Shown here one piece after another: positions 3 to 48,546 of a stretch of DNA of 59,436 nt. Origin of the DNA: Candidatus Yanofskybacteria bacterium RIFCSPHIGHO2_01_FULL_41_21. Its GTDB lineage: Bacteria > Patescibacteriota > Minisyncoccia > 2-02-FULL-40-12 > GWA2-44-9. A program made the position numbers and the translations under genes. Under the pieces are notes generated by a model. That model made no database searches. It saw nothing but the letters and a program-made list of their open reading frames with translations, and was not told the origin of the DNA. Location of the stretch: NCBI GenBank assembly GCA_001794025.1, contig MGJA01000013.1:1-59436 (forward strand), given 5' to 3'. Each line of letters begins with the position of its first letter. The stretch's first letter is position 1.

Positions 3-1799
3 GTGGATATGTTTCTGACATCCGTAGCAATCGCCGTTTCGGCGGTTCCGGAGGGTCTGCCGGTAGCCATGACGGTTATCTTGGCAATAGGAGTTCAGCG
101 TATGGCGCGGCGCAAGGGTGTTATCAGAAAGTTGATTGCAGCGGAAACACTGGGGGATACCAGCATAATTCTCACTGATAAAACAGGAACATTAACAACG
201 GCAAAAATGGAATTAAGCAAAGTGCTTCCGATTGAAGGCGTGGAAGAAAAAAACCTGCTTGAATTAGCTCTCGTTAACACCAATATCTTAATAGAGAACC
301 CCAACGATCCGCCGGCAGAGTGGCGAACCAGCGGACGAATACTGGAGACGGCATTAGTGAGGTCGGCTGCCCTTCGAGATATATTTGTGGAAGATGTTAA
401 GAAAAGAACCTCAATCTTAAATTCACTGCCGTTCAATGCGGTTAATAAGTTTTCCGCTTCACTGATACATGACGGAGAAAAACATTTACTTTTATTCTTC
501 GGCGCGCCGGATATTTTTATCGGACACTCTACATTAAGCTCTACTGAGCGAGACGCCGCTTTAAAAGAAATCGGCTCTCTTGCTGAATCCGGGGAACTTG
601 TAGTCGGAGTGGCGGTAAAAGAAATTGAAAAAAAAGAAGATTTCACCTTCTCAAAGGACTTGGAATTAGCGAATCTTGTATTTCAAGGGTTAATTACTAT
701 GCATGATCCGATCAGGCCGAGTGTTAAAGATGCAATCCAAAAAGTGCAAGAATCCGGCATAAGAGTAATAGTCATGACCGGTGATCATCGCGGCACGGCT
801 GAAGCCGTAGCGAAAAAAGTTGGTTTTGAAATTGAGAAAGAAAGCGTACTTGATTCTTCAGAACTTCGACTACTTTCGGATGCGGATCTCAAAAAGCGTT
901 TGCCGTCTCTGCGAGTTATTTCTCGCGTATCTCCGCTAGATAAAATGAGGATTGTAAAAGCGTTTCAAGAAACAGGAGAAGTTGTGGCAATGACCGGCGA
1001 CGGCGTAAACGATGCGCCGAGTATTAAACAAGCCGACATAGGGATTGCTATGGGTTCGGGGACAGAAGTGGCGCGTGATGTCGCAGACCTTGTATTGTTG
1101 GATGATAATTTTGAGACCATTGCTGCTGCCGTGGAAGAAGGTCGTCAAATTATGCACAATATCCGTAAGGTTCTCGTATATCTTCTTTCTTCCGTATCAG
1201 ATGAACTGCTTTTGATTGGTGGAGCTCTTGTAATGGGTCTAGCACTTCCATTGAATGCGCTTCAGATATTATACGTGAATTTCTTTTCAGACAGCTTTCC
1301 GGCTGTCGCGTTCGCTTTCGAAAGGGATATTGACGGTTTAACTTACCGTTCCCGGAGTACAAAAGCCGGCCTCTTTGATCCCATTATGAGATTTTTAATT
1401 TTATTCATCGGCCTTTCCACGAGCGTGCTTTTATTTGTATTGTACTGGTTATTATTGCGAGCCGGTTTTCCAGAAGATCTTGTAAAGACATTTATTTTCG
1501 CCAGTTTCGGAAGTTATACCTTATTTTTAGCTTTTTCACTTAGAAGCTTGGATAAAAACATCTTCAAATATCCAGTTTTTTCAAATCGCTATCTAGTTGT
1601 GGGTGTAGGCATCGGATTGGTTCTTATGGCCGTGGCTATCTATGTTCCATTTATGCAGTCATTATTAAAGACAACCCCGTTGCCTTTTTACTGGCTTTTG
1701 GGAGTTGTATTGATCGGTCTGATAAATATTTTAGCGGTTGAATTTGGGAAATGGATTTTCCGTTCCAAAGTCCATTTGCCGTTCAAGAAAAAACCCTGA
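3..1799 (+). CDS. P-type (E1-E2) cation-transporting ATPase, C-terminal ~600 aa; 5' end cut by window edge
   Basis: ORF open at window edge; phosphorylation motif DKTGTLT, MTGDHRGTA and hinge TGDGVNDAP motifs, C-terminal TM helices. Confidence 0.9.
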   Translation: MDMFLTSVAIAVSAVPEGLPVAMTVILAIGVQRMARRKGVIRKLIAAETLGDTSIILTDKTGTLTTAKMELSKVLPIEGVEEKNLLELALVNTNILIENPNDPPAEWRTSGRILETALVRSAALRDIFVEDVKKRTSILNSLPFNAVNKFSASLIHDGEKHLLLFFGAPDIFIGHSTLSSTERDAALKEIGSLAESGELVVGVAVKEIEKKEDFTFSKDLELANLVFQGLITMHDPIRPSVKDAIQKVQESGIRVIVMTGDHRGTAEAVAKKVGFEIEKESVLDSSELRLLSDADLKKRLPSLRVISRVSPLDKMRIVKAFQETGEVVAMTGDGVNDAPSIKQADIGIAMGSGTEVARDVADLVLLDDNFETIAAAVEEGRQIMHNIRKVLVYLLSSVSDELLLIGGALVMGLALPLNALQILYVNFFSDSFPAVAFAFERDIDGLTYRSRSTKAGLFDPIMRFLILFIGLSTSVLLFVLYWLLLRAGFPEDLVKTFIFASFGSYTLFLAFSLRSLDKNIFKYPVFSNRYLVVGVGIGLVLMAVAIYVPFMQSLLKTTPLPFYWLLGVVLIGLINILAVEFGKWIFRSKVHLPFKKKP

Positions 1800-1817
1800 T
1801 AAAATCAGGATTTTTTC
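1795..1817 (+). terminator. Rho-independent-type hairpin (CCTGAT-AAA-ATCAGG) followed by T-run, overlapping the ATPase stop codon
   Basis: Inverted repeat 1795-1800/1804-1809 then ATTTTTT; lies between convergent ATPase and tRNA genes. Confidence 0.6.
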
Positions 1818-1822
1818 GTCTG

Positions 1823-2076
1823 CTCCGCGGCCAGGACTCGAACCTGGAACCATCGCCTTACACATAATCCATAGCTTTCGATATGGGGTGGACTATCTCA
1901 TGTCCCTAACGGGACCCGGGTATATAGTCTCTACACATTTATCATCTTGCGATGAATTTAGCTCGGGATTGCCAGTTGAAAGGTTTCCCCGAATTAGCCC
2001 GATTTTTCAATCACGCATTTCTACGTGAAGCTGCCTTACTCGACAGGGCGCCGCTCTACCATTGAGCTACCGCGGA
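1823..2076 (-). tRNA. tRNA-Asn(GUU) gene interrupted in the anticodon by a ~182 nt group I intron; CCA not encoded
   Basis: Minus strand. Acceptor TCCGCGG/CCGCGGA (U1-A72) with discriminator G. D arm GCTC-AATGGTA-GAGC. Anticodon stem GCGCC/GGCGA. T arm CCAGG-TTCGAGT-CCTGG. Joining the exons gives loop CTGTTAA, as in E. coli tRNA-Asn. Confidence 0.8.
1861..2042 (-). ncRNA. Group I intron (IC3-like tRNA intron), no ORF
   Basis: The 5' exon ends in U35, which pairs as U.G with internal guide GCAG (P1). P2 is TCACG/CGTGA. P4 is TCGGGG/TCCCGA with A-rich J4/5 and J5/4. P6 is TCATC-GCAA-GATGA. The R-like element is GTAGAGACTA and the S-like element GAGATAGTCC (P7 GACTA/TAGTC). P8 is GTCCC-GTTA-GGGAC. 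P9 carries a GAAA loop. The terminal nucleotide is G (omega G). Confidence 0.75.
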
Positions 2077-2152
2077 ATGTATTGTTAAGTTCTAACATGA
2101 GAATTTTATCATATAAAACCTTGTTGTTCAACCTGCCTGCTGGTAGGCAGGG

Positions 2153-3463
2153 CTACTTTGCATTAAGGTATATCTTGGAATCCTTGATACATATCGTGGC
2201 ATCCAAACAACTCATGATCTCTCGTTTCTCCTCTCGGGTGCCTTCCATGAGTAAGTATTTAGCATAATTCCGGATATTCACTTGATTGGTCTGGGCTTCA
2301 GCTACTTCTTGCCCCAAGATGCCATTTACAAACTTTCGATGCCGATCAACCTCTCGATTCAGCTTTTCGGATATCTGAATCTTATTGACCGGGATATTAT
2401 CAAAGAGTTGAAGCAGTAACCCAATGAGATTATCTTCTCGGATATACTTTTCGTGGCAATACCGGTCTCTGAATTTCATACAGTGATAGTAGATATATTT
2501 ATTGACGCCGCCATTTTTGAGTCGTTTGAATTTTTCGCTGGCTGTCACACCTGATCCACACTTGCCACATTTGAATATCTTTACGAAATTGAACTCTTTG
2601 GTACCAGGTCGAAGTCGTGGTGCATGAACTAAGCACGCCTGCACTTTTTCAAACAGCTCTTTATCAATAATCGGTGCATGCTTGCCGTCATAGAAGATGC
2701 CACTACCTAATGGATACTCAAAGCGGCCGTGATAAAAATGGTCTCGCAGAATACTATATATTCTACTCAGCGCCATTTTGTGGTTAGTACGAGTTTTGAA
2801 CCCGATTTCATTCAACCACTCTAAGATATCCCGGCCACTGCATCCTTGATAGGCAACCTTCTTAAACATCTCTTTTATAATTGGGGCACGTTCCGGGTCG
2901 ATGATAATTTTCTTTTCACCTTTCTTACAATTCGGATCGTAGTGGTATCCCAATGGTGGCATTCCTGGACGCCATCCGGAAGCACATTTGGCTCGCAGTC
3001 CTCGTTTTACATTTACGGACAGATCGATGATGAACTGGTTGGCCATACCGAACTCGACCTGCATCATTAATACATTATCTGTCGGATAATAAACTCGGCC
3101 GAATGTTTGGATTTGTTTTATAATATTTTTCTGTAGCATCCAACTGATAGCTCCGCCGTCAATTGGATTTCTTGCGATGCGGTCAAGCTTCCAACAGATA
3201 ATTCCGTCGGCTTCATTATGCTTAATTTTTTCCAGCATTTGATTAAACACTGGCCTGCCCGGTGCCTTCGCTGATTGGGCTTCGGTAAATATCTCGACGA
3301 TGTTCAGATTATTTTCCCAAGCCACTTTTTGAAGCTCGGCGATTTGGGCATCAATAGATGCTACTTGCCTATCTTCCGCCTCGCTTGATTTCCTTGCGTA
3401 AAGGCAGTATTTGATGGGGACTACTGGAACCTCTTGTAGTTGTTGTGTATTGTTCATATACAC
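2153..3463 (-). CDS. Large serine recombinase (phage-type integrase)
   Basis: N-terminal resolvase-type catalytic region (YARKSS...QVASIDAQ), central recombinase domain, Cys-rich zinc ribbon CGKCGS...YYHC, C-terminal coiled coil; 77 nt from the tRNA 5' end. Confidence 0.85.
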   Translation of the reverse strand: MYMNNTQQLQEVPVVPIKYCLYARKSSEAEDRQVASIDAQIAELQKVAWENNLNIVEIFTEAQSAKAPGRPVFNQMLEKIKHNEADGIICWKLDRIARNPIDGGAISWMLQKNIIKQIQTFGRVYYPTDNVLMMQVEFGMANQFIIDLSVNVKRGLRAKCASGWRPGMPPLGYHYDPNCKKGEKKIIIDPERAPIIKEMFKKVAYQGCSGRDILEWLNEIGFKTRTNHKMALSRIYSILRDHFYHGRFEYPLGSGIFYDGKHAPIIDKELFEKVQACLVHAPRLRPGTKEFNFVKIFKCGKCGSGVTASEKFKRLKNGGVNKYIYYHCMKFRDRYCHEKYIREDNLIGLLLQLFDNIPVNKIQISEKLNREVDRHRKFVNGILGQEVAEAQTNQVNIRNYAKYLLMEGTREEKREIMSCLDATICIKDSKIYLNAK

Positions 3464-3516
3464 ATTGATGACGCCGTTCCTCTGACCAGTCCAGACTCCT
3501 AGTTGGTAACTTTTGT

Positions 3517-5052
3517 TTAAAGTTTTTGCCTTAAAAAAGAGTTGAAAGGGAGTGTTGAATTTGGGAATTTAGATCCACCCATTCGGTCAGCTTTACCTCC
3601 AGGGAAAGAGCCACGTCTGTTATTGTCCATCGTATAGTACGCAAGGATAACAAAGGCATCCATAAGATCGTCATGTTTTTCCACCCCGAACCCTACGATT
3701 TGGTTAATAAGTTCCTCGCACCCTTTCTTGGGAAATAAAATAACACCGTTTTTAATGAGATGCGATATTAAAGACAAGCGGGATCGTTTATCCATGCCAT
3801 TGATTTTTACACCCCTGGCGTCAATCCAGCGTTCTTTAAGCTGTTGAGTGAAAGCCTCTTGGTAGGCGACTTCTTCTATAAGCAGTTCTGTACTTTTTCT
3901 GTTTGGATTCGCGGTTCTTGATATCAGCTCGGCTTTTTCAAGCGCTGTTGGAAAATCCATTCGGGCGTTGACGGGAAATGAATGAACATAGAGCTTAGTT
4001 TCTCCATAGCGTCCGAATTTTGAACCCGTGACCATGGCGGTATAATCAGCCGTCTGTTTAAGAGAGATGGCAAGATCAACCCCTGTCTTAGTCCATGAAT
4101 ACCTGTCAGAACTGAAAGACGGAAAATCATCGTTGTCGTAATACTGAATCCACTCACGAGGAACCACTTGGTCATCGGCCGGAATAATCTTCAGCATAAA
4201 CTCTCTTTGCCATGAAATATCGTTAGCAATTTTCTGGCGCTCTTCTTCTATCGTTTCTTGTGTTGGAAATCTACCCGGCCAAGCGACCACTCCCTTATTA
4301 TCCATAAGCGGATATTCCCGGTAGACTCCTTTTAATTTTTCTGCGTCAATTTCTTCTTGAAGACGTCTTAATAAACCATCTTCGTGCAATAAGTTTCCTA
4401 TAATTATCACTTTCACATTCGGGCTTCCAGAAGGAATAATATCGCCCTTGAACCAATCATAGGCCTTGTCTCGGCTGTCTTGAGTCCTGACACTTTGGAG
4501 ATCTTCAATGTCGTCAGCTATTATGACATCCGGCCTGTACTGAAGATACCTTGTGCCTCGTATGCCCTGTTCGCTGGACGCCGCCATAATCCTGGCATCG
4601 TATTTAGGGATGACTAAAGCAAAACCACCCCACTCATCCGGCTCTTCTTTAAATGGTCCCAAATCAGAACTTAACAAATGATTTTGTTCAAGCTCTCTTT
4701 TAATGTTCATGAGATACTGTCTGGCCTGTCTTTGGGTTTGGCTTAAAATCACGATGAACTTTTTCCCTTGTCTGCCCAGTATTGCCCATAAGGGATAGGA
4801 GAGGGTGCAGAGGGTTGATTTTCCAGAGCCTCTGAAAGCGGTTATTACTGAAATACCAATATCTTCTTTTTCTGTAAGTTCGAATATCTGCCGATGGAAC
4901 TCCGCCGTTTGAAATGTCACATAATGGGGAAAGTAAAAATGGAAGAACCAATAATGACTCGCTTTGGCAAGGTTAATCCGGAAATTCCGGTTCTTCACCA
5001 TCTGTTCCAGTACCGTCTTGAGCGAGTTTTGGTTGGTTATTATTTTGCGCAT
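3517..5052 (-). CDS. Phage terminase large subunit (TerL)
   Basis: Walker A AFRGSGKST, Walker B-like VIIADDIED, C-terminal RNaseH-like nuclease region; overlaps upstream small HTH gene as in terS-terL pairs. Confidence 0.8.
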   Translation of the reverse strand: MRKIITNQNSLKTVLEQMVKNRNFRINLAKASHYWFFHFYFPHYVTFQTAEFHRQIFELTEKEDIGISVITAFRGSGKSTLCTLSYPLWAILGRQGKKFIVILSQTQRQARQYLMNIKRELEQNHLLSSDLGPFKEEPDEWGGFALVIPKYDARIMAASSEQGIRGTRYLQYRPDVIIADDIEDLQSVRTQDSRDKAYDWFKGDIIPSGSPNVKVIIIGNLLHEDGLLRRLQEEIDAEKLKGVYREYPLMDNKGVVAWPGRFPTQETIEEERQKIANDISWQREFMLKIIPADDQVVPREWIQYYDNDDFPSFSSDRYSWTKTGVDLAISLKQTADYTAMVTGSKFGRYGETKLYVHSFPVNARMDFPTALEKAELISRTANPNRKSTELLIEEVAYQEAFTQQLKERWIDARGVKINGMDKRSRLSLISHLIKNGVILFPKKGCEELINQIVGFGVEKHDDLMDAFVILAYYTMDNNRRGSFPGGKADRMGGSKFPNSTLPFNSFLRQKL

Positions 5053-5461
5053 TCTGTTGGGGCAAAGCGAGCTTTAACGCTTCACGGAGGAGTTTTGTCT
5101 GCTCCGGAGTCAAGGGTTCGCTTGCCTGGGTTAGATGACCTTTTATTTCCAACGTATTTCTGTAGCGAGGTTCATTGTGGGTAAGCCAAAAACGGATGGC
5201 ATCAAATTTCTTGTCTTTGATCAAAGAGAAAATTTGTGACTCCGCAATGTCTGAAATAAATATCCGGCCTTCGGTAAGGGCCAAATCAATTTCCTTGGCG
5301 AACTTTTTACTATTTTTAACCCAACGGTATATGTTGGTTCGTGCCACTCCGGCTTTTTCACAAGCCAACTCTACTGTTGGTGTCCGTTTGAGTTGCTCAA
5401 TAAAAGCCTTCTTAAGTTTCTTCTGCCGTATTTTTATTGTTTTTTCTTTGGACATAATCAA
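4973..5461 (-). CDS. HTH DNA-binding protein, terminase small subunit-like
   Basis: HTH ACEKAGVARTNIYRWV; position immediately upstream of and overlapping TerL. Confidence 0.5.
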   Translation of the reverse strand: MIMSKEKTIKIRQKKLKKAFIEQLKRTPTVELACEKAGVARTNIYRWVKNSKKFAKEIDLALTEGRIFISDIAESQIFSLIKDKKFDAIRFWLTHNEPRYRNTLEIKGHLTQASEPLTPEQTKLLREALKLALPQQNAQNNNQPKLAQDGTGTDGEEPEFPD

Positions 5462-6783
5462 GATATTTTTTTAACTTTTTTGCCGGTTAGATTTTGCCAC
5501 CTGCGTTTTATAATTTCAGCGTAGACAGAACTCTTTTCCATTATGAAGCATCGACGGCCAAGTTTGATTGAGGCGATAAGAGTGCTCCCAGAGCCGCCGA
5601 ACGGCTCCAGGACTAGATCATTACGCTTCGTGAGCACCTTAATATATGGGATTAAGAGCTCGAGAGGTTTGGTGCCGAAAATAATGCTTTGTCCTGATGA
5701 TTTCTGATCAGCCGCAATATGGTCAATGAAATCGGTCGGGCATATCTTTTTACCTTTCTCATATCCTTCCCAGTGGGGCTTGCCGGCGGTGGCATACAGG
5801 GCATTCTCATATTCGTTCTGGAACAACTCATCAGATTCAGGAGCGAGATTTAAGTCCGTCTTGCCAGAACTGCCGACCAATGCAATGTCTTGTTTGTTGA
5901 AGAACTTATACTTGGCAGAAAATCCTTGGACACGATTCGGGACATGCCATGTAATAGTATTGCGATATCGCCAATGTTTTTCGAGGGCGTTCCATATCGT
6001 GCGCAGATTCTTTGGATGCTCGAAGATAATAATAGAGAAATCCGACTTCTGAACCTTGCTCACATTCGCCATCCACTGATCAGTGAAGTCATCGGGCAGA
6101 ACGTCGGTTTCCAGATATTTACGATTTTTCTTCAATCCAAAACCTTCCGTGGGTTTGCCGTTTTTGGACTTGCCGTGGAGATAATCCAAAATATATGGGG
6201 GGTCTGTAAAACACATGTCGGCTCGCTCGTCACCCATAAGTTTAAGCATCTCGGCCTCAATACAAGAGTCACCGCACATAAGGCGAGAACCGTTACCCAG
6301 TTCGTAGATGTCGCCCTTTTTAATCGTAATCTCTTTGATGTTAAGTTTTTCCAACTCCTTTTTAAGGTCAAATTGCTCCGGCGTATCCTCAATCTCGAAG
6401 ATTGAATCCAATTCCTCCGAGCTGAAACCAATATCGCCGAGAAATTCTTCTCCGAAACTTTTCAATAGTCCGAGATCAAATTCCCCCAAATTTTTATTCA
6501 ACCTCAAATTTAGTTCCTTCTCTTTTTCAAGGTTTGGAATGTTAACATAAACCACCGGGACTTTTTCATATTTCAAGTCTTTAGCGATCTTCAGTCTGAA
6601 GTGACCGCCGATCACCACATTTTCTCGGCCGGGAGCAGAATTGCAGATTATCGGATCAACAATTCCGAATCTCTTAATTGATTCTGTAAGAGCTTCGATT
6701 TGAGATTGGTTCCATTTTCGCGGGTTATAAAGAGCTGGTCTTAGCTCCTTAATTAGAACTTCAATAATTTTAAGATTAGACAT
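5458..6783 (-). CDS. ParB-like nuclease domain fused to DNA N6-adenine/N4-cytosine methyltransferase
   Basis: N-terminal ParB/Srx-like region (LYNPRKW, GGHFRL); methyltransferase motif IV DPPY (CFTDPPYILDY) followed by AdoMet motif I EPFGGSGST (beta-class order). Confidence 0.8.
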   Translation of the reverse strand: MSNLKIIEVLIKELRPALYNPRKWNQSQIEALTESIKRFGIVDPIICNSAPGRENVVIGGHFRLKIAKDLKYEKVPVVYVNIPNLEKEKELNLRLNKNLGEFDLGLLKSFGEEFLGDIGFSSEELDSIFEIEDTPEQFDLKKELEKLNIKEITIKKGDIYELGNGSRLMCGDSCIEAEMLKLMGDERADMCFTDPPYILDYLHGKSKNGKPTEGFGLKKNRKYLETDVLPDDFTDQWMANVSKVQKSDFSIIIFEHPKNLRTIWNALEKHWRYRNTITWHVPNRVQGFSAKYKFFNKQDIALVGSSGKTDLNLAPESDELFQNEYENALYATAGKPHWEGYEKGKKICPTDFIDHIAADQKSSGQSIIFGTKPLELLIPYIKVLTKRNDLVLEPFGGSGSTLIASIKLGRRCFIMEKSSVYAEIIKRRWQNLTGKKVKKIS

Positions 6784-6848
6784 GTTTTTGTTTAGGTTAT
6801 TTAAATAGTTATTTCCGCTTAAGTCTCAGTTTAATTAAAATCGTTAAC

Positions 6849-7238
6849 TTATTTCTTGCTCTTTTTCTCTTTCTCTTTTCGTGTTTGCATACCGGCCAAA
6901 CGTAGGAATAGTTCAACTTCTTTTGATTCTCCTTTTGCTGAGGCAGTTTCATAGAGTGCCCCAATCACATCCGGAACCCTTTCTTTAATCCATGCCGAAA
7001 TCTTTGATTGGAGCAAAAGTGGAAATTGGGGGTGTCTTTTCCAATCAGTTAAAGTATCCTCGCTCACTCCGATTAATTCCGCTAAATCTTTTTGGAATTT
7101 AGGTTCTCTTAGATATTGTGGAGTAGCTATCCATTCAATAAACCTAAGGAAGCCACCAAGATCCTTTATCCCACTAATTACAGGGTAATCGGAATGAATC
7201 GCTATGGATTTTATGATTTTGCTTGTAGTCATAGTCAT
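6849..7238 (-). CDS. Small HTH protein, second terminase small subunit-like/phage DNA-binding protein
   Basis: HTH LAELIGVSEDTLTDWKRH, basic C-terminal tail; first gene of the minus-strand phage block. Confidence 0.4.
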   Translation of the reverse strand: MTMTTSKIIKSIAIHSDYPVISGIKDLGGFLRFIEWIATPQYLREPKFQKDLAELIGVSEDTLTDWKRHPQFPLLLQSKISAWIKERVPDVIGALYETASAKGESKEVELFLRLAGMQTRKEKEKKSKK

Positions 7239-7849
7239 ATGGTTATTATTGGTTTATATTCGACCGTACAACGAAAACACCAACCGCAGTGGTTGGTGTT
7301 GGTGCATGAGAAAAACAGGCAGAGATACTTAACGAATGCAACAACATCAACCAGTTTTGGTTGTATTGTTACCTTCGTCAAAGACCCCTTAATCAGAAAT
7401 TTAAATTTCTGTTCGGCAACCTCCTATGACTCATAGAGCGGAATAAACGCTCAGTCGTGTATCTCTACACGCGTAAGGCAATATGTATTTTCGACGTACT
7501 ACACATACCTTAGTACATAGAGAGACAAATGCAATAGAAGTAGGTGGATAACACATTTGGTTCAACAGACTGCCAAAGGAGGCGCAAATTGAACTGTTGG
7601 TAAGCCCCCTTCGCAACCGTCCTTATTTAAGCTTGAATGGACGCCAGGTCGATATTTTGTTAGAATACCCTTAACAATTCAGCCTAAACCCATCAAGAAT
7701 CCTTGGCGGGCATGGCACAAAATCGTTAGGTACATTAAACCCGTCAGAGGGCGTACCTAACGTTATACAGGGAAACTTGTATATGCGACCGAAAGGTTGC
7801 ACCTGTGGCGGGTTTTGTGTTTCTTGCCACCTAAATCCATCCAAGGAGT

Positions 7850-8158
7850 ATGAATGATAAAAATTTAATTTGCGGCAGTTGCGGACACACTAATCCCGCA
7901 AAGAGGGTTACCCGAGGTACTTTCCTTGCGGAAATTACCCTTTGGGTCACAGCCCTCTTTCTACTTTTTGCGATACCATTTATTGGCGGTGTTTTAATCG
8001 TCATAGCGATTGTCTATTCGGTCTGGCGACTCCTCTCTCGAAGAACTAAATGTCAATATTGCGGGAATACAAACCTTATCCCGATTAATAGTCCTATCGG
8101 GAAGAAATTACTTGAAAAATTAGAGAACGGGAAAGAAAGCGAAAAAGGAAATATATAA
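7850..8158 (+). CDS. Zinc-ribbon membrane protein
   Basis: CGSCGH ... CQYCGN Cys pairs flanking two hydrophobic helices; RBS AAGGAG upstream. Confidence 0.5.
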   Translation: MNDKNLICGSCGHTNPAKRVTRGTFLAEITLWVTALFLLFAIPFIGGVLIVIAIVYSVWRLLSRRTKCQYCGNTNLIPINSPIGKKLLEKLENGKESEKGNI

Positions 8159-8173
8159 TTTTCCACCCAACCT

Positions 8174-9247
8174 ATGGCAATCATCATTTCAAAAAACGGC
8201 AAGAACGCCGTTCGGATAGATAAGTCGACCTTCGATAAGGAGGACTATCTACAAAAGTATATTTACGATAATCCCGAGAGTATTCCTCTCTACGACATAA
8301 AAGAAGATATCCGGCTCCTAATTTTGGCTCGTGAATTTCCGACCAACAGTGGCCCGATTGATGCCATCGGCATAGACAAGGAAGGAGAGATATACATTAT
8401 TGAAACCAAACTATATAAGAACCCTGATAAAAGAACTGTTGTTGCTCAAGCCTTGGATTATGGCGCCGCCCTCTGGAAGCACTCAAGCAACTTTAACGAG
8501 TTTATTGCCATCCTAAACGAGAACGTCCAAAAAACATTCAGAGTTCCCCTTAATCAAAAACTCCAAGAATACTTCGGCCTATCAGAGGAAGAGCTAAACC
8601 AACAGTTGGATTTGGTGAAGAATAACTTAAGTGATGGCATTCTGCATTTTGTCATTCTAATGGACAATCTCGATGATCGGCTCAAAGACCTCATTCTCTA
8701 CGTTAACCAAAACAGTCAGTTTGATATCTACGCCGTTGAGCTTGAATACTATAAACACGATACCTATGAGATAATCATCCCTCGCATTTATGGGGCAGAA
8801 GTTAAAAAAGATATAGCCGTCAGTTCATCATCTTCCTTGCGTACGTCCTGGAATGAGGAGAAGCTTTTGAATCAGGCCAAAGAACTTCTGACCGACGAGA
8901 TATATACAAACTTTAAGAAGATTTATGACTTCTCCAAAGAATACGCTGATGAAGTCCGTCTTGGGACCGGACAAAATGGCTCCTTTAATCCTATCTGGCA
9001 TTCAGTGAGAGATAAATCGCTTTTTAGTCTATATGCAAACGGTCGGATGGGTATAAACTTTCATTGGCTTGTAAACGATGATAAATCTAATCTGGCAATC
9101 ATTGATAATTTTAAGAAAAAGCTTCAAGGAATAGGGTTTGAAATTCCTGATAACTATACCGAAGTAAGACCTGGCTATGATCCCGAAATATGGAGTCCCC
9201 GAACCGACCAATTCATTCAGGCAGTTAAGGATGTGGTGGCAAAATGA
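8174..9247 (+). CDS. PD-(D/E)xK nuclease-fold protein (NucS/DUF91-like N-terminus) with uncharacterised C-terminal domain
   Basis: Motif GPIDAIGIDKEGEIYIIETK (D ... E-x-K) in the N-terminal third; 15 nt after the Zn-ribbon gene. Confidence 0.5.
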   Translation: MAIIISKNGKNAVRIDKSTFDKEDYLQKYIYDNPESIPLYDIKEDIRLLILAREFPTNSGPIDAIGIDKEGEIYIIETKLYKNPDKRTVVAQALDYGAALWKHSSNFNEFIAILNENVQKTFRVPLNQKLQEYFGLSEEELNQQLDLVKNNLSDGILHFVILMDNLDDRLKDLILYVNQNSQFDIYAVELEYYKHDTYEIIIPRIYGAEVKKDIAVSSSSSLRTSWNEEKLLNQAKELLTDEIYTNFKKIYDFSKEYADEVRLGTGQNGSFNPIWHSVRDKSLFSLYANGRMGINFHWLVNDDKSNLAIIDNFKKKLQGIGFEIPDNYTEVRPGYDPEIWSPRTDQFIQAVKDVVAK

Positions 9248-9261
9248 TACTAAATACCCAA

Positions 9262-9296
9262 GCACAAAACGGCTAAAATCAGCCGTTTTGTGCTTT
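9262..9296 (+). terminator. Rho-independent terminator
   Basis: 13-bp stem GCACAAAACGGCT / AGCCGTTTTGTGC followed by TTT. Confidence 0.7.
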
Positions 9297-9335
9297 ACGA
9301 GAGGGCAAAATAGGGCTAAACTTAAGGAATAAACT

Positions 9336-12300
9336 ATGTCTCAACACGCTACCTCATATATTGCTGAAGTTTCTGAAAAATACAAAACCGGCCGTGCCGG
9401 CGAACATGCCTATCGACCTACTTTTGAGAAACTTGTTAAGACAATAGACAAAACTATTGGGATTATTAATGATCCAAAACGCACAGAATATGGCGCTCCA
9501 GACTTTATATTCGTAAAAGGTGAGCTAATAGCTGGTTACGCCGAGACTAAGGATATAGACGTAGATTTAGACAAGACTGTAAAATCCGAACAATTGGAGC
9601 GTTATTTCGGCTACTCCAATTTAATACTTACAAACTATCTCGAATTTAGATTTTTTAGAAATGGATCGTTATGCGGTGAGCCTATTGTTATAGGAAAAAT
9701 CGATGGTGACACGGTCAAAATTATTGACGAATCCGCAGGTACTTTAGAAAATGCCATTAAAGATTTTCTTATTTCTCAGCCGGAAGCGATCAAGAGTGGT
9801 GTTCGTTTAGCGAAAATTATGGGTGGTAAGGCTCGTCGTATTCGTGACAATGTTAAACAATTTCTCACTAAAGAATCTGATGAGAACAAAGAGCTTGGAA
9901 AGATTTATGGTACTATCCAACAACTTTTAGTTCATGATCTCGACCCGAGTTCCTTTGCTGACATGTACGCGCAGACACTTGTTTATGGTCTATTTGTGGC
10001 TCGTTACCACGACGACTCACCGGAAAATTTTTCTCGTAGAGAAGCCGGAGATCTTATTCCTGCTTCTAACCCTTTTTTGAGACATTTTTTCGACCACATA
10101 GCAGGAATAAACTTTGATCAGCGACTCGCGTATATAGTAAATGAGTTGTGCGAAATATTTCGGGTTGCCGATGTCCAGAAGTTGATGAGCGAATATTATG
10201 AGAAAAATCTTTTTGGCGAAGAAATTAAAGGACCCGATCCAGTAATCCATTTTTATGAAGATTTTCTTAAAGAATACGATCCTGTTTTACGAAAGAAAAT
10301 GGGTGCCTATTATACACCGCTACCGGTGGTCAGATTTATTGTCAAAACTGTTGACGACATCCTACGAATAAATTTTAAGCTAGCGGACGGACTCGCCGAT
10401 ACTTCAAAATTATCAAATGGCCTCCATCGTGTTCAGGTTTTAGATCCAGCCGTTGGTACGGGTACATTTATCAGTGCTGTTATTAGAAAAATTTACGAGC
10501 TCTTCGTAAGGACAAAACAGGAAGGTCGTTGGCCGACATATGTTCATCACGATCTTTTACCGCGCATTTATGGTTTTGAGTTAATGATGGCTTCGTATAC
10601 GATTGCCCACTTAAAATTAAGTATAGAGTTCTCAAAAACAAAATTTAAACACTTTAACAAGCGACTTGGAATATATCTAACAAATTCACTTGAAGAAATC
10701 GTAGATCAAAAAAGCCTATTCTCTGGATTTGGTCTTGCCGAGAGTATAACCGAAGAAGCAAAAGAAGCCGCTATTATAAAAAGCGAGAGGCCGATAATGG
10801 TAGTTGTCGGTAATCCTCCGTATTCGGGGGTATCAAGCAATACATTTTACACTGGACACGGTGTATACAAAACTGAACCGACCGGAGGAAAATTAAAAGA
10901 AAGAAACTCTAAATGGCTCAACGATGACTATGTTAAATTTATACGCCTTGCGGAAAGTATGGTTGAAAAAACTGGCGAAGGAATTGTGGCCATGATTACC
11001 GCTCACGGGTATATAGATAATCCAACTTTTCGTGGCATGCGGTTTCACTTAATGAAAACATTTGATGAGATATATGTGCTTGATTTACACGGTAATGCCA
11101 ACAAGGAAGAAAAAGCATCAAATGGCGATGATGATAAAAATGTTTTTGATATAAAAACTGGAGTAGCCATTTTTATTGGCATTAAAAATAAAAAAAGTAA
11201 AGATGGAATTGCCAGAGTGTCTTGTGCTGATTGTTTCGGTAGCAGGTCATCTAAATTCGAATTTCTGAATAGCAACTCCTTCAGTTCTATTAAGTGGAAG
11301 GATATTAATCCTTCTGCACCTAATTATGAATGGGTTGTTCGTGATACAAAAACGCAAGGAGAATATCAAAAAGGATTCTCTGTTAATGAGTTATTTTTAA
11401 AGTCTAGTGTTGGCATTGTTACTGCTCGTGACGAAATGTCTATACGGCTTACGAGAGGTGAGGTTGAGGAAGTGATTCAAGACTTTCAAAATCTGGATGA
11501 AGAAACATTAAGAAGTAAATATGATTTAGGAAAAGATGCACAGGATTGGAAGGTCTCATGGGCTAAAAAAGATATACTAGAAAATTTTGATAACAACAAA
11601 ATAGTGCCAATTTCTTATCGGCCCTTTGATGTTCGCTGGACTTGCTATACAGGTACATCAAGAGGATTTCATGTTCGACCCAGAAGTGAAGTTATGGCTC
11701 ATATGACAAAAGACAACCTAGCTTTAATTGTCCTCAGGCAAGTTAAGGCTGGTAAAAGTTTCCAACATATTTTTGTATCAAAAAATATTACTGAATCAAC
11801 CCTGGTTTCTAATAAGACAAGTGAGATAGGCTACGTATTGCCACTCTATAATTATGATCATAGCGATAAGCTCCCCAATTTAGATAAAAAGATTATTGCC
11901 GATTTCGAAATAATCGTGGGTAAAGTTTTGTCCGAAGATATTTTTGACTACATCTATGCGGTCCTTCATTCGCCGAGCTATCGTGAAAAATATAAAGAGT
12001 TTTTAAAAATTGATTTTCCAAGAATACCATATCCAAAAGACAAAGAAACTTTCAAAAAACTAGTCGCTTTCGGCAAAGAATTACGGCTACTCCATTTACT
12101 CGAATCTCCTAAGATTAATCAATCCGTCATTTCATACCCAGAGGATGGCTCGAATATAGTAGATAAAATATCCTATACAGATAGTAGAGTATTTATTAAT
12201 GCCACACAGTATTTTGGCAACGTGCCGGAAATTGCTTGGCAGTTTTGGATTGGCGGCTATCAACCAGCTCAAAAATGGCTTAAGGATCGCAAGGGCCGAG

Positions 12301-12401
12301 CTTTAACCAATGAAGATATCGAGCACTATCAAAAGATAGTCGTTGCGCTAGTTGAAACGGATTTGGTCATGAAAGAGATCGATAAATATCTAAAACCATG
12401 A
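9336..12401 (+). CDS. Fused restriction-modification enzyme: type IIG / helicase-less type ISP-like (PD-ExK nuclease + gamma-class N6-adenine methyltransferase + specificity domain)
   Basis: N-terminal GAPDF...GYAETK (PD...ExK). Methyltransferase motifs AYYTP, LDPAVGTGTF and NPPY (VVGNPPYSG). C-terminal type-ISP-like block YIYAVLHSPSYREKYKEFLKIDFPRIPYP. No Walker A or helicase motifs. Confidence 0.8.
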   Translation: MSQHATSYIAEVSEKYKTGRAGEHAYRPTFEKLVKTIDKTIGIINDPKRTEYGAPDFIFVKGELIAGYAETKDIDVDLDKTVKSEQLERYFGYSNLILTNYLEFRFFRNGSLCGEPIVIGKIDGDTVKIIDESAGTLENAIKDFLISQPEAIKSGVRLAKIMGGKARRIRDNVKQFLTKESDENKELGKIYGTIQQLLVHDLDPSSFADMYAQTLVYGLFVARYHDDSPENFSRREAGDLIPASNPFLRHFFDHIAGINFDQRLAYIVNELCEIFRVADVQKLMSEYYEKNLFGEEIKGPDPVIHFYEDFLKEYDPVLRKKMGAYYTPLPVVRFIVKTVDDILRINFKLADGLADTSKLSNGLHRVQVLDPAVGTGTFISAVIRKIYELFVRTKQEGRWPTYVHHDLLPRIYGFELMMASYTIAHLKLSIEFSKTKFKHFNKRLGIYLTNSLEEIVDQKSLFSGFGLAESITEEAKEAAIIKSERPIMVVVGNPPYSGVSSNTFYTGHGVYKTEPTGGKLKERNSKWLNDDYVKFIRLAESMVEKTGEGIVAMITAHGYIDNPTFRGMRFHLMKTFDEIYVLDLHGNANKEEKASNGDDDKNVFDIKTGVAIFIGIKNKKSKDGIARVSCADCFGSRSSKFEFLNSNSFSSIKWKDINPSAPNYEWVVRDTKTQGEYQKGFSVNELFLKSSVGIVTARDEMSIRLTRGEVEEVIQDFQNLDEETLRSKYDLGKDAQDWKVSWAKKDILENFDNNKIVPISYRPFDVRWTCYTGTSRGFHVRPRSEVMAHMTKDNLALIVLRQVKAGKSFQHIFVSKNITESTLVSNKTSEIGYVLPLYNYDHSDKLPNLDKKIIADFEIIVGKVLSEDIFDYIYAVLHSPSYREKYKEFLKIDFPRIPYPKDKETFKKLVAFGKELRLLHLLESPKINQSVISYPEDGSNIVDKISYTDSRVFINATQYFGNVPEIAWQFWIGGYQPAQKWLKDRKGRALTNEDIEHYQKIVVALVETDLVMKEIDKYLKP

Positions 12402-33534: not shown

Positions 33535-33769
33535 TACTCAATATTAATAAAAGAGCCAGTTCGACTCATACTAGCTCCATGTGACTAGATACGTAATGAC
33601 CTCTCTCCTTGTTTCAGCCCTTTTTACTGAAATAATTACAAAACATTTATTTTCTTTGACTACTTGACAGGTTTTTTACAAAAGAATACGGTGATATCAT
33701 AAATAAATCTTGTTGAAAAAATGTAGATTATTCGCCAATAATTTACAAATTCAACAGGAATCTCATACC

Positions 33770-36700
33770 GTGAAAAATATCACCGGACTTCGTCGTGGGG
33801 GAGTGGTAAGTAAATCAGTTATTGCAGTCGTCATGACCGCCACTTTTTTGATGAGCGGTTTTTTTGCACCTAATAATGCTTTGGCGGTAATTTCCTCGAT
33901 TGATGTTACATATCCAGCAGCAAGTGACATTTATGTAAAAGGAACTTTTAATATTACATGGGCAGCAGCTGGAGAACCCGACGATTTGGTGGATATTTAT
34001 TATTCGACTAATGATTTTGGAATTAGTACTAAATTGACAGCTAGCGGTATTGATTATGATGCAGGAACTTATGCTTGGAATACCACTTCTCCTGCAATTC
34101 CTGATGGAGCATCTTATAAAATAAAAGTTAAGAGCACAAGTAATGATATAAATGGAATTTCAGCAAATACATTTACCATCGACAACACTCTTCCTACCGT
34201 CCCGACTGTGTTGACTCCCAATGGTGGACAGGTATTGAAAGGTGGAGATGATTACGATATCACCTGGACATCTTCGGTAGATACTAATTTTAGCGCCACG
34301 CCGATCAAGATTGAGTATTCTAAACTAGGTGACTTTAGTGATACCACCACAGTGGTGGCCGCCACCGCCAATGATGGCAGTTATACCTGGAGTTTACCGA
34401 CTGACGACACTACTACCGCAAAGATAAGAGTTACCGCTACTGATCTGGCCGGCAACACGGGTAGCGATTTATCCAATGCAACTTTTACCATTGACTCCAC
34501 CGCACCAACTATTCCGGTTACCACTCTAACTGGCACTACCGTCCAGGCCGACAATGACACGATTACCATTGTTTTCAGCGAGCCGGTGTTAGCCGATGAC
34601 GGTACCTGGTCAACCAATGAATTCAGTGCTATTGAAAGTCCAGACGGTACAGTGCTTGACCTGACTGGCGCGGTTTTTGGTTATGCCGGCAGTACCCTTA
34701 CGATTACACTATCCGAAGCTAACGAATATTTGCAGAATGGAGATTTTGTCGCAGTAACAGCAGTAGCTGGTAAAATCAAAGACCCCGCAGGCAATGCACT
34801 GGCGGCGATTGAAGTGATTGGTACTGTCGCTGTAACCGGCGATGTAGCCGCTCCTACCGTGGCGCTAACCTATAACCCGGATCGGCCGGTAAAAGATGCC
34901 GACACCGTCACCATCACTGCCACTTTCAATGAAACTATTCTGGGTACTCCCCAGATTGCCATTGCCACCGCTGGTGACGGCGATGTGGCAGCAACCGGAA
35001 TGAGCACCACGGCTGATCCTCTAATTTGGACTTACTCCTGGAACGTGCCAAGCGGAACGGATGATGATGGCCTGGCAACCATTACCATCTCTGGGGTAAC
35101 CGATCTGGCCGGCAACGCCAACGCGGTGGCCAGCAATAATACCCGAACAGTAGATAATACCGCACCCAGTGTCAGCAGTTATACTCTTAACGGTGCCACC
35201 GCCCACACCTACTTTAATCCCGCTCTGGGAACGGTCCAAATTCACATCACTGCCAGCGAAGCGGTGCATTTTAATCGCATTCGCGTTTGTGCCAATGGCG
35301 ATGCGGTATGTAATGATGGCACGGCACTTAAATACTTCACCCAAACCACCAGCTTTTCGTCACTTGGCTCAAAAACTTGGGACGGTTATGATAATCAATC
35401 CACGCCGGTAATCGCGCCTGATGGTGTCTACAAACTTAATACCAATCTGGAAGATGAGGCCGGTAATGTAGCGACTGTTATCCTGACTACCTACCTGATT
35501 ACCGTGGATACGGCTGATCCGACTTTCAGCGCCTTCAACGCACCGGCCACCGATGCAGTTTACAAAACCAATACTCCGTTGCAATTTACACCAGATGACT
35601 CTGCTACGGCCGTAACTTGTGCCTATAAAATTGATACTAGCAGTTATATTTCAGTTGATTGTACGGCTGCCACACCGTTCAGCGACACGATTCCTGATGG
35701 TAGTTTGAGTGATGGTCGCCACACTGTTACGATTAAAGTCGTTGATGCTGCCAATAATTCTTTGGAATCGTCCCCAGTTTCCTTTGTTTTTGATAATAAT
35801 AATACCCTTACCGTTGATGACGACGGTATTGCTTTCGCTGACTTCAGTACGATTTCCGAAGCGATTACTAAATCAACTACTAATGATACGATTAATGTCG
35901 CGGCGGGGAGTTATGGTAATAGTTTGACGGTAAACAAAACTCTGACTATAAATGGCGGTGTCGGGGGTGAAACATCTACTCAAACTGCCGCAGTTTCCAT
36001 TACCGCCGACAATGTCACGCTGGATAACTTTACATTTACTGGAAATTTGGGTGGTGACGCGTTTATTAATCTTGATAACGATACCGCGCATTCGGGTATC
36101 AGCTTAACCAATAATACTTTTGACGGAGCGATTACTACTTGGCACGTTATCCGCGCGGGCGGTAACAAAGACGACCTGACAATCACCGGCAACACATTCA
36201 CCGGAAGCACTTCGGGTAACGACAATGCATTGATTCTCTTGGGAGTTGGAGGAAGCAACATCAATGTCAGCACCAACATCTTCGAAAGTTTTCCAAGTAC
36301 CTACTCGTTGGTCGCTATTCAGCACAGTGCGAGCGGTGGTGCAAGGACTGATGGACTTACTATCAGTGGCAACTCGTTTGACTACACGGGGTACACCAAT
36401 GCAGGGAACGGCTCGGAGGCTATCAGCGTGCGGTATGCAGATAATGTCACGGTCAATGGCAATATCTTGACGGGTTCGGCATCAGATACGACATATGAAG
36501 CGGGAATCACGCTCGCTTCTGTAACCTCCACTGGGGGCCAGAGCGTCATCAGTGGAAACACGGTAAACGGATTCAGTCGCGGCATTCGTATTCAGCGATG
36601 GTCTGGCGGTGATGGATTCGCTGACGATGTAGAAATCACCAACAACACGGTAACCGATGGGGTTAGCAATGATTTGAATTACGGGGCAGCTTCTACGGGC

Positions 36701-47050: not shown

Positions 47051-47311
47051 TTGCAGATGATGTATTATCCAAATTATCCGGGATACTCGGATAGTGGAAT
47101 GTGGTGGTTGAGTACACCGATAGGGTTGGGTATTGGTTCTCTTTTCGCGGTGTTTATTTTGTGGAGTTTATTCTGGAAGGGAATGTCCCTCTGGAAATCC
47201 GCTCGCCACGGGCACAAATGGTGGTTTATCGCCCTTTTGCTTATAAATACCGCCGGTATTCTGGATATTCTCTATATCTACGTTTTCTCAAAGAGAATGA
47301 AGAAGGGCTAA
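47051..47311 (+). CDS. DUF5652-like small membrane protein
   Basis: KGMSLWKSARHGHKWWFIALLLINTAGILDILYI. Confidence 0.55.
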   Translation: MQMMYYPNYPGYSDSGMWWLSTPIGLGIGSLFAVFILWSLFWKGMSLWKSARHGHKWWFIALLLINTAGILDILYIYVFSKRMKKG

Positions 47312-48546
47312 GAGTTAAACTTTTTCAGGAATTTTGTTTTGTAACTTTGATACGAGCCACGCGCGAGCGAGGCTCGTATTTCGTTTAAAAGATTATTAAA
47401 GAACCACATATTGTGCATTAGGCACCATCTCTGACCTTTTGCATTTAATTCACGGTCTTCGTTTTTAATCAAAGCCCTAATTTTAGAGCGGGATATTTTA
47501 GAGGAACAAGTCAAACAACCGCAACCTTTTTCAATCACTTTTTTGTCGTTTGAAAAAGCGCCTCGGCGAATATCCATGTGACCGGTTTTGGTATAGAGCC
47601 GACCGTGACGGGCTTCACGGGTGGGGATGACGCAATCAAAAGTATCAATACCATTATCTATTGCTTCAAAGACATCCGCTACTTTACCGACACCTAATAA
47701 ATGACGGGGTTTTTCTTCTGGTAAATAAGGAACGACCCATTTCAACATTTTTGAAATTTGTTTTTTAGTGTATGACCCACCAATACCGAAACCGTCAAAA
47801 GGCATAAAGCCGATTGATTTAGCGCTTTTAATCCGAAGATCTTTAAATAACCCGCCTTGAACTATGCCAAATAACATTTGTTTTGGATCCCTTGTTTTTA
47901 AACATATCTTTGCCCATTTATCTGTAAGCTCAACTGCTTTTCTATTATATTCATAATCATCTAACGGTGAAGTGATCTGGTCAAAGGCAAATATAATATC
48001 TGCCCCGATCTTGCTTTGGAGTTTCATGGATAATTTCGGACCCAAAAACGATTTTTCTCCTTTAAAATTAAAATGAACTCCTTTTTGAGTAATCCTAATC
48101 TTACTGCGTTTATAACTCGCATCTGGCTTAGAATCGCCCGTCATAAATTTTCCGACTTTATTTTTATCACCAAAAGCCAGCGATAATACTTGAAACCCGC
48201 CACTATCGGTCATAGTCGGGATATTTAAACCTAATTTTTGTGTTAAAAATGTGTCTAATTTTTTGTTTTTTTCCGCCAGTTGGCGCATTGACTTATTACT
48301 TTGCAACACGGTATCCCAGAGGTGGAAGGTATTGGCAATGACTAGTTGCGATTTTGTTTTGGGAATATCACTTGGTTTGAGATGGAGAAACTTGCCATAA
48401 GTCCCAACGAACACATAGGATGGTGTTTTGATGATGCCATGAGGAGTTGTTAAAATACCCAAACGGGCTCTTGTTTGCTTGTCTTTTTTAATGATAGTAA
48501 ACCCCGCCGTTGAAGAATGATGTGTCTTTTTTATAGTGTTTATCAT
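47308..48546 (-). CDS. tgt: tRNA-guanine transglycosylase
   Basis: DSGGFQV, LLGVG, zinc site CGCLTCS. Confidence 0.85.
   Translation of the reverse strand: MINTIKKTHHSSTAGFTIIKKDKQTRARLGILTTPHGIIKTPSYVFVGTYGKFLHLKPSDIPKTKSQLVIANTFHLWDTVLQSNKSMRQLAEKNKKLDTFLTQKLGLNIPTMTDSGGFQVLSLAFGDKNKVGKFMTGDSKPDASYKRSKIRITQKGVHFNFKGEKSFLGPKLSMKLQSKIGADIIFAFDQITSPLDDYEYNRKAVELTDKWAKICLKTRDPKQMLFGIVQGGLFKDLRIKSAKSIGFMPFDGFGIGGSYTKKQISKMLKWVVPYLPEEKPRHLLGVGKVADVFEAIDNGIDTFDCVIPTREARHGRLYTKTGHMDIRRGAFSNDKKVIEKGCGCLTCSSKISRSKIRALIKNEDRELNAKGQRWCLMHNMWFFNNLLNEIRASLARGSYQSYKTKFLKKFNS

Follow-up and report, generated by a model that had tools for sequence, protein, structure and literature searches.

The minus strand of this locus contains two tRNA halves that are separated by 182 nt. 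This arrangement raises the questions of what the intervening sequence is, which tRNA is restored when it is removed, and whether it can be removed by self-splicing. The window analyzed is the whole stretch of DNA presented here (59,436 nucleotides). In the first-pass annotation, which was made from the letters of the sequence, the intervening sequence is read as a compact group I intron that splits the anticodon of tRNA-Asn(GUU) and that is unusual in its host and its size. The tRNA-Leu(UAA), tRNA-fMet, tRNA-Arg(CCU) and tRNA-Ile(CAU) genes given there as the classical bacterial settings agree with a preprint (K. P. Williams, bioRxiv 2020, doi 10.1101/2020.01.27.920355), in which Leu.3Ug, Arg.5Ug, fMet.2Ug and Ile2.5Ug are the four classical settings, 5292 group I-split bacterial tRNA genes are mapped, and the number of settings is raised to 21. 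The seed alignment of this preprint contains Pam37.Asn.4Ug, which has exactly the host and the position of the window intron, and the Wba81.Asp.4Ug and Mba143.Tyr.4Ug seeds, which have the same CUGU/GCAG P1. The Azoarcus intron, taken in the first-pass annotation as the benchmark of compactness at ~205 nt, is a compact 205-nt intron (PMC13168695). A literature search for group I introns in tRNA-Asn of bacteria gave no other paper, and a search on the smallest group I intron gave nothing usable.

The analysis described below indicates that the intervening sequence is very likely a functional, ORF-less, compact tRNA-type group I intron, which is located between U35 and U36 of tRNA-Asn(GUU) of a Yanofskybacteria-like CPR bacterium and which descends, in pared-down form, from a mobile family.

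Structure of the intron

The Rfam Intron_gpI model (RF00028) matches positions 2056-1869 of the minus strand over its full length (model positions 1-253) with a score of 60.2 bits and an E-value of 8.4e-13, as compared with a gathering score of 50 bits. This match and a LOOT RNA are the two Rfam matches in the whole window. The relatives of the intron at loci L200, L020 and L073 give Intron_gpI scores of 60.5-83.6 bits. The P1-P9 elements, as mapped by hand, are summarized in Table 1 together with the host gene and its neighbors. All 48 pairs are standard in the window, and the helices, the coordinates and the length given in the first-pass annotation are correct. The lengths of the elements sum to 182 nt and leave no space for additional domains or an ORF, and the intron, examined for a homing endonuclease, contains no ORF.

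Table 1. Positions of the interrupted tRNA gene, the intron elements and the neighboring features in the window
Feature	Position	Strand	Description
Interrupted tRNA-Asn(GUU) gene, complete	1823..2076	-	exon 1, intron and exon 2, to discriminator G73; no encoded CCA
5' exon UCCGCGGUAGCUCAAUGGUAGAGCGGCGCCCUGU	2043..2076	-	tRNA positions 1-35; 34 nt, ends C32 U33 G34 U35 (CUGU)
3' exon UAAGGCGAUGGUUCCAGGUUCGAGUCCUGGCCGCGGAG	1823..1860	-	U36 A37 A38 ... G73; 38 nt, begins UAAGG
Group I intron	1861..2042	-	182 nt, without ORF, omega-G at 1861; Rfam RF00028
P1	2031..2046	-	exon CUGU and intron C with guide GGCAG; 6-nt loop GAGUAA
P2 hairpin	2012..2027	-	6 bp, GAAA tetraloop; all 6 pairs vary on both sides
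P3 5' strand UCGGG	1998..2002	-	partner 1916-1920; 3/5 pairs covary
P4-P5	1963..1992	-	P4 UCGGGG/UCCCGA, J4/5 AAA, P5 CC/GG closing 8-nt loop UUUCAACU
P6 (GC/GU) and P6a hairpin	1935..1962	-	P6a 5 bp, GCAA loop; 5/5 P6a pairs with compensatory changes
P7 5' strand GAGACUA	1925..1931	-	bulged A at 1930; 6 pairs invariant
P3 3' strand CCCGG	1916..1920	-	hand mapping and homolog alignment
P8 hairpin	1902..1915	-	5 bp, GUUA loop; 4/5 pairs covary
P7 3' strand UAGUCC	1890..1895	-	hand mapping and homolog alignment
P9 hairpin	1869..1886	-	GAAA tetraloop, one internal U-C mismatch; 5/6 pairs covary
Tail after P9	to 1861	-	8 nt, AUUAUGUG, ending in omega-G
Hairpin CCUGAUUUUAUCAGG followed by U-run	1787..1809	-	13 nt past tRNA; terminator-like on both strands
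Sigma-70-like promoter match	2103..2131	-	TTGAAC-17-TAAAAT; 27 nt upstream of tRNA
Large serine recombinase	2153-3463	-	directly upstream of tRNA, co-oriented
Large terminase	3517-5052	-	phrog_38 at 2.5e-80
ParB-N6/N4 methylase	5458-6783	-	
HTH protein	6849-7238	-	
LOOT RNA	7681-7801	+	77.2 bits (Rfam)
Type ISP restriction-modification enzyme	9336-12401		after LOOT RNA

The 5' splice site is located between 2043 and 2042, inside P1. U35 (2043) is U(-1) and forms a wobble pair with G9 of the intron, in agreement with the U.G pair that had been noticed at this site. The four P1 pairs of the exon (CG, UA, GC and UG) are each conserved in 18 of 18 homologs. The P7 arrangement is such that G112 and G114, which flank the bulged A113, are paired with C153 and C152 (intron numbering), and the G 1929-C 1891 pair of P7 is a candidate for the guanosine-binding pair, analogous to what we take to be its counterpart in the Azoarcus intron, G130-C177. 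P10 is 2 bp at best. P2 is present, the P2.1, P5abc, P7.1/7.2 and P9.1 extensions are absent, and the core is Azoarcus-like. This element list and the alignment of the core with that of the Azoarcus intron point to an IC3-type compact bacterial tRNA intron (Azoarcus/Anabaena type).

Covariation and stability of the fold

Eighteen compact Asn and Asp position-4 introns were aligned with MAFFT. In this alignment (A1), 95.8% of the cells are paired, as compared with only 28-48% in controls with the 3' strands displaced by 1-3 columns. Twenty-five pairs are changed on both sides across the 18 homologs, and none of 500 shuffles matches any of the observed pairing measures. The covariation is located in P2, P3, P6a, P8 and P9, while P4 and P7 never vary, partly because the patterns used to search for homologs contained these segments. 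The thermodynamic minimum free energy structure recovers P1, P2, P4/P5, P6a, P8 and P9 with a z-score of -2.6. Judged by these measures, the structure of the intron is far beyond chance. The anatomy of the sequence, its membership of the family, the covariation and the distribution are all obtained directly.

Distribution and size of the Asn.4 introns

The identical 24-nt 5' half of the host tRNA is found at 120 sampled genomic tRNA-Asn loci, and 25 of these genes (~21%) are interrupted at exactly this site. All 25 introns directly follow CUGU, contain the P7 motif and end in G before UAA, as the window intron does with G 1861. The 25 introns are 179, 190-206, 220-308 and 534-557 nt long. Because 12 of them are 205 nt or shorter, a size below 205 nt is routine in the Asn.4 class. 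When species-representative genomes are scanned with the J6/7-P7...P7' core pattern, at least 120 loci are obtained, with introns in tRNA-Arg(UCU), Asn, Asp, Leu and others.

Among the matches listed, the closest relative is the intron of L200 (MGKE01000007.1, Ca. Yanofskybacteria RIFCSPLOWO2_01_FULL_39_28), which shares 92% identity with the window intron and has a length of 179 nt. The intron in the Patescibacteria tRNA-Asn gene of L020 is 85% identical and 193 nt long. Asn.4 introns of 179 nt (L506, L513 and L593) and 178 nt (L519) are present among the matches listed from the metagenome scan. These relatives of 178-179 nt are shorter than the window copy, which is near the floor of the class and is neither unique nor the minimum. 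The view that an Asn host and a size below that of the Azoarcus intron make this intron unusual is accordingly not upheld, since Asn.4Ug is already a seed in Williams (2020), one in about five of the sampled tRNA-Asn genes is interrupted at this site, and dozens of Asn.4 introns are present in public genomes and metagenomes. The window intron has the features of the Asn.4Ug class, i.e. a tRNA-Asn(GUU) host, a position after the fourth nucleotide of the anticodon loop, U(-1) and omega-G, and can be assigned to it by sequence. It is a compact but ordinary member of a catalogued class that is common in CPR bacteria, and is not a new kind of intron.

Several shorter lengths were considered and rejected. 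ARAGORN in intron mode gives introns of 171-179 nt for L017, L045, L062, L069 and L224, but the 3' exons of these solutions are 'ghost' exons inside P9, and the true lengths are 184-199 nt by inspection. The 168-nt 'Pro' solution for L519 is a boundary artefact, and so are the 176-178-nt solutions for L294, which most likely contains a Thr(UGU).5 intron of 194 nt. No match to the locus is detected by blastn among 50,697 phage records. The resolved introns of viral contigs among the listed matches of the P4-P5 scan include no Asn.4 intron and are mostly Leu(UAA).3 introns.

Genomic neighborhood and intron lineages

The P-type ATPase gene at 3-1799 of the plus strand is 83-93% identical to its homologs in Candidatus Yanofskybacteria MAGs, which assigns the window to a Parcubacteria/Patescibacteria (CPR) genome. 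The hairpin downstream of the tRNA, when read on the plus strand, also ends the ATPase gene, and the flank that contains it is 87-95% conserved in Yanofskybacteria L447 and L450. The promoter match upstream of the tRNA carries no statistical weight, with three sites found as compared with 2.8 expected. The stretch from the recombinase to the Type ISP enzyme looks like a prophage remnant or an island. A literature look-up on the LOOT RNA within it gave no relevant paper. Past the Type ISP enzyme, an ordinary chromosome with glycogen synthase, GH57, TGT and PMT is observed.

At the 38 loci of ATPase-syntenic relatives, neither a tRNA nor an intron is found downstream of the ATPase. L020 has the same arrangement of tRNA-Asn, intron and recombinase with 82.5% nucleotide identity, while in L200 the tRNA has its neighboring recombinase on the opposite side. 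According to tblastn, a large serine recombinase is located within 1.5 kb of tRNA-Asn at 12 of ~116 loci. Because it is found beside interrupted and uninterrupted tRNA-Asn genes alike, tRNA-Asn appears to be a recurrent landmark for the integration of islands, independent of the intron. No att-like duplicate of the tRNA or the intron above chance is detected within the window, the longest repeats being at most 13-15 nt.

The introns at the same site in L403, L447, L466 and L470 are 534-557 nt long and contain an ORF of 110-140 aa with a CxxC...HH...CANCH motif. This ORF is tentatively HNH-like, because its score against Pfam HNH is 18.7 bits, below the cutoff of 21.4. The presence of the HNH-like ORF in these longer copies suggests that the window copy represents a mobile family in a pared-down form without an ORF. 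The 203-nt intron of L450 (Yanofskybacteria) belongs to a different core lineage, like that of the Tyr.4Ug seed, but its P9 and tail are identical to those of the window intron, and the region of P9, tail, 3' exon and downstream flank is 95-100% identical. This combination of another core with window-like 3' parts suggests that intron replacement or recombination has occurred at the tRNA-Asn site. Frequent hopping among tRNAs with GUN anticodons was considered and rejected, because the Asp introns form a sister clade of the Asn introns in a neighbor-joining tree and are not interleaved with them. A change of host between tRNAs that have a GUN anticodon and the common CUGU target therefore seems to be rare and old.

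Host tRNA and competence for splicing

ARAGORN in default mode detects no tRNA anywhere in the 59-kb window. In intron mode (-i), it detects a tRNA with a 182-nt intron, but it names this tRNA Thr, tRNA-Thr(tgt) i(33,182), with a placement shifted by 2 nt upstream. The host would then be tRNA-Thr(UGU), with the intron located 2 nt further 5' (CU|GU...AUG|UGUAA). The two placements are alike in that U precedes the 5' site and G precedes the 3' site. They differ in P1, in which U33 faces A instead of G, the wobble is formed by U35 in all 18 homologs, and a guide for CCCU (GGGG) is not present. When the exons are joined in silico at the Asn placement, ARAGORN identifies a tRNA-Asn(gtt) of 73 nt, in which the loop CUGUUAA is regenerated, the acceptor stem is a perfect 7-bp helix (UCCGCGG/CCGCGGA) and the D and T arms are normal, as had been described for the two halves. 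Its body contains U1-A72 and G73, as does that of bacterial tRNA-Asn. Of the 90 uninterrupted genes with the same 24-nt 5' half, 89 read on as CUGUUAA, i.e. as tRNA-Asn(GUU). The same 2-nt shift is given by ARAGORN for many homologs. The Thr(UGU) host is thus rejected on the U.G rule and the comparison of the exons, and we consider it extremely improbable. Because the U.G wobble is formed only at U35 in P1, and because the uninterrupted genes with this 5' half read as Asn, the host tRNA is identified from its sequence as tRNA-Asn.

A quite improbable alternative, to which more weight can be given than to the Thr host, is that the intron is genuine but has lost the ability to splice by itself, either because it has become dependent on a protein without the canonical P5 and P8 receptors, or because it is decaying within a tRNA gene that is redundant and lies beside or on the island. 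Only 2 bp and an 8-nt loop remain of P5, and 5 bp and a tetraloop of P8, and P9 contains a U-C mismatch, all of which would fit a loss of self-splicing. However, this reduced P5 module is itself found widely, in many classes of intron, all core positions that are invariant in the family are intact, and the peripheral helices are kept by compensatory changes, which indicate selection for folding. The tRNA gene could be a second, dispensable copy, because it adjoins an integrated element: it abuts the recombinase/terminase island, the pair of tRNA and recombinase recurs in L020, and the ATPase-syntenic relatives have no tRNA here. Counter to this alternative, all three Yanofskybacteria tRNA-Asn genes among the matches listed (L200, L447 and L450) are interrupted, and the intron is 92% conserved in L200, with its differently placed recombinase. 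The intron in tRNA-Asn(GUU) is genuine and structurally intact, and it is very probably a functional ribozyme.

We infer catalytic activity, the guanosine site and splicing in vivo for this intron along the usual group I pathway, as follows. The pre-tRNA would be transcribed as a single RNA, in which P1 arises from pairing of the exon CUGU with the intron guide GCAG and the 5' splice site is marked by the U35.G wobble. The first attack, after U35, would come from a free guanosine bound by the G-C pair of P7 (1929/1891). The terminal G (1861) would then take the guanosine site, and the freed 3'-OH of U35 would attack after G 1861, so that the exons are joined and the loop CUGUUAA is restored. 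The anticodon stem, which is able to form across the intron, may help to hold the exons together. The intron itself would descend from a mobile family, with sister introns that carry the same guide in tRNA-Asp and tRNA-Tyr.

Implications

The use of this finding in practice lies chiefly in genome annotation. The interrupted gene is missed by ARAGORN in default mode and misnamed as Thr in intron-aware mode. CPR genomes that carry this intron will therefore seem to be without tRNA-Asn, and estimates of completeness and inferences on codon usage will be skewed. The three interrupted genes out of three among the matches listed show that the tRNA-Asn gene is routinely interrupted in Yanofskybacteria. 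It is plausible, given the small CPR genome, that the intron is essential if this is the sole Asn gene, in which case all decoding of Asn in the host cells would depend on the ribozyme. The window intron adds a well-supported, very compact case (182 nt, with relatives of 178-179 nt) to a little-publicized class known from a preprint, and, with P5 and P8 so reduced, it is reasonably suited to studies of the lower size limit of natural group I ribozymes.

Comparison with known introns

The Azoarcus intron and the window intron are similar in that both are located in an anticodon loop, have a P1-P9 layout with GAAA loops in L2 and L9, and contain neither P5abc nor an ORF. In a pairwise alignment they are 51% identical overall, with very few differences in J3/4-P4, J6/7-P7 and the P7 3' strand. 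The Azoarcus intron differs in its host and in its insertion after the anticodon, at position 5. Cuts in P5 (-13), P8 (-9), P2 and P6a make the window intron 23 nt shorter; length is thus lost only in these peripheral elements, and the core is almost that of the Azoarcus intron, which is self-splicing. The 11-nt receptors (CCUAAG...UAUGG) in P5 and P8 of the Azoarcus intron, to which L9 and L2 dock, are absent from the window intron, in which P5 is CC[UUUCAACU]GG and P8 a simple helix of 5 bp, although the GAAA loops of L2 and L9 are kept. Because these canonical receptors are absent, efficient folding might require a protein or a high concentration of Mg2+.

The 12-nt CCUNUNAANUGG mini-P5 is widespread across intron classes among the matches listed of two scans. 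It is conceivable, but rather unlikely, that the Asn.4 introns of 178-182 nt in Yanofskybacteria and its CPR relatives, the window intron among them, are the shortest natural group I introns with a complete P1-P9 core, that they self-splice without canonical receptors in P5 and P8, and that this recurrent mini-P5 represents a new compact docking module. If so, they would provide a natural scaffold smaller than the Azoarcus intron for structural biology.

Two seeds of the preprint share position 4 with the window intron. Pam37.Asn.4Ug has the same tRNA-Asn(GUU) host, CUGU|UAA site, U(-1), omega-G and GCAG-type guide as the window intron, but is a longer variant that has additional hairpins after P7 and in the P2-P3 interval. 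Wba81.Asp.4Ug, which has the same sequence as L252, is a 196-nt intron in tRNA-Asp(GUC). It differs from the window intron in its host and in its longer P6a and P8, but its architecture is nearly identical, with P1 CUGUC/GGCAG, GNRA-capped P2 and P9, a minimal P5, and the long matching stretches CUAAUUCGGGGAAACCUUU...AAUCCCGAGCUAAAU, GUGUAGAGACUAUAUACC and GAUAGUCC.

The putative island next to tRNA-Asn

The region adjoining the interrupted tRNA-Asn gene (window 2153-12401, counted to the end of the Type ISP gene) looks like an island or prophage remnant. Its genes are listed in the table. Capsid and portal genes are not identified among the ORFs tested.

Features of the window and of a related locus
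Feature	Location	Strand	Match
Large serine recombinase	window 2153-3463	-	
Large terminase	window 3517-5052	-	phrog_38, 2.5e-80
ParB-N/DNA methylase fusion	window 5458-6783	-	
HTH protein	window 6849-7238	-	
LOOT RNA	window 7681-7801	+	Rfam RF03000, 77.2 bits
Type ISP restriction-modification enzyme	window 9336-12401	+	
LOOT RNA	L200 1939-2060	-	Rfam RF03000, 65.2 bits
Mini-P5, 12 nt, CCUUUCAACUGG	window 1972-1983	-	
Queuine tRNA-ribosyltransferase (TGT)	window 47308-48546	-	Pfam, 1.1e-94
1720-aa protein, four Big_5 Ig-like domains	window 33710-38872	+	Pfam, 1.6e-52

A large serine recombinase homolog is found within 1.5 kb of tRNA-Asn at 12 of the approximately 116 loci sampled (L200, L381, L384, L403, L431, L439, L467, L472, L475, L484, L485 and L020). 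At the sampled loci it is usually located at the 3' end of tRNA-Asn in convergent orientation, and only in the window and at L020 is it located 5' of tRNA-Asn and co-oriented with it. Recombinase homologs lie close to intron-bearing and intron-less tRNA-Asn genes alike. This result suggests that, in CPR bacteria as well as in others, islands with a serine recombinase have tRNA-Asn as a recurrent integration target. In two Yanofskybacteria-like genomes, those of the window and L200, the recombinase-bearing region contains a LOOT RNA a few kilobases from the interrupted tRNA-Asn; the parts consulted of the 2017 motif-discovery paper (PMC5737381) contain no discussion of this RNA. The Big_5 protein encoded elsewhere in the window is presumably a large surface protein and has no relation to the tRNA-Asn intron.

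Other introns at the same site

At L450, a locus of another Yanofskybacteria genome, the Asn.4 site (after U35 of the anticodon loop) is occupied by a 203-nt intron, the core of which belongs to a lineage unlike that of the window intron and which is not detected by Rfam at the gathering score. Comparison of L450 466-809 with window 1762-1905 and 2040-2078 reveals 95-100% identity in P9, the 3' tail (CCACCCCAUAUCGAAAGCUAUGGAUUAUGUG), the 3' exon and the downstream flank. This pattern looks like intron replacement or recombination, in which the 3' side would have been co-converted. At four other loci (L403, L447, L466 and L470), the Asn.4 intron is 534-557 nt long and encodes a conserved ORF of 110-140 aa with the motif CxxC...HH...CANCH. 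This ORF probably encodes an HNH-type homing endonuclease; its score against Pfam HNH is 18.7 bits, below the cutoff.

Detection of the interrupted tRNA

ARAGORN in default mode reports 0 tRNAs across the 59-kb window, and in intron mode it wrongly names the interrupted tRNA-Asn (1823-2076) as Thr(UGU). Its calls for the homologs frequently contain 'ghost' exons within P9. In routine annotation, CPR genomes carrying an Asn.4 intron will appear to lack tRNA-Asn.

Anticodon loop and mini-P5

TGT, which is encoded in the window, acts on the GUN-anticodon tRNAs (Asn, Asp, His and Tyr) and recognizes U33-G34-U35. The hosts of introns inserted after CUGU include Asn, Asp and Tyr tRNAs, all of which are among these substrates, and the U33-G34-U35 element is complete only after splicing.

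Among the matches listed, many bacterial introns in tRNAs of different host classes (Leu, Asn, Asp and Lys) have the mini-P5 CCUNUNAANUGG in place of the P5 tetraloop-receptor hairpin. The 12-nt mini-P5 may be a compact docking module.
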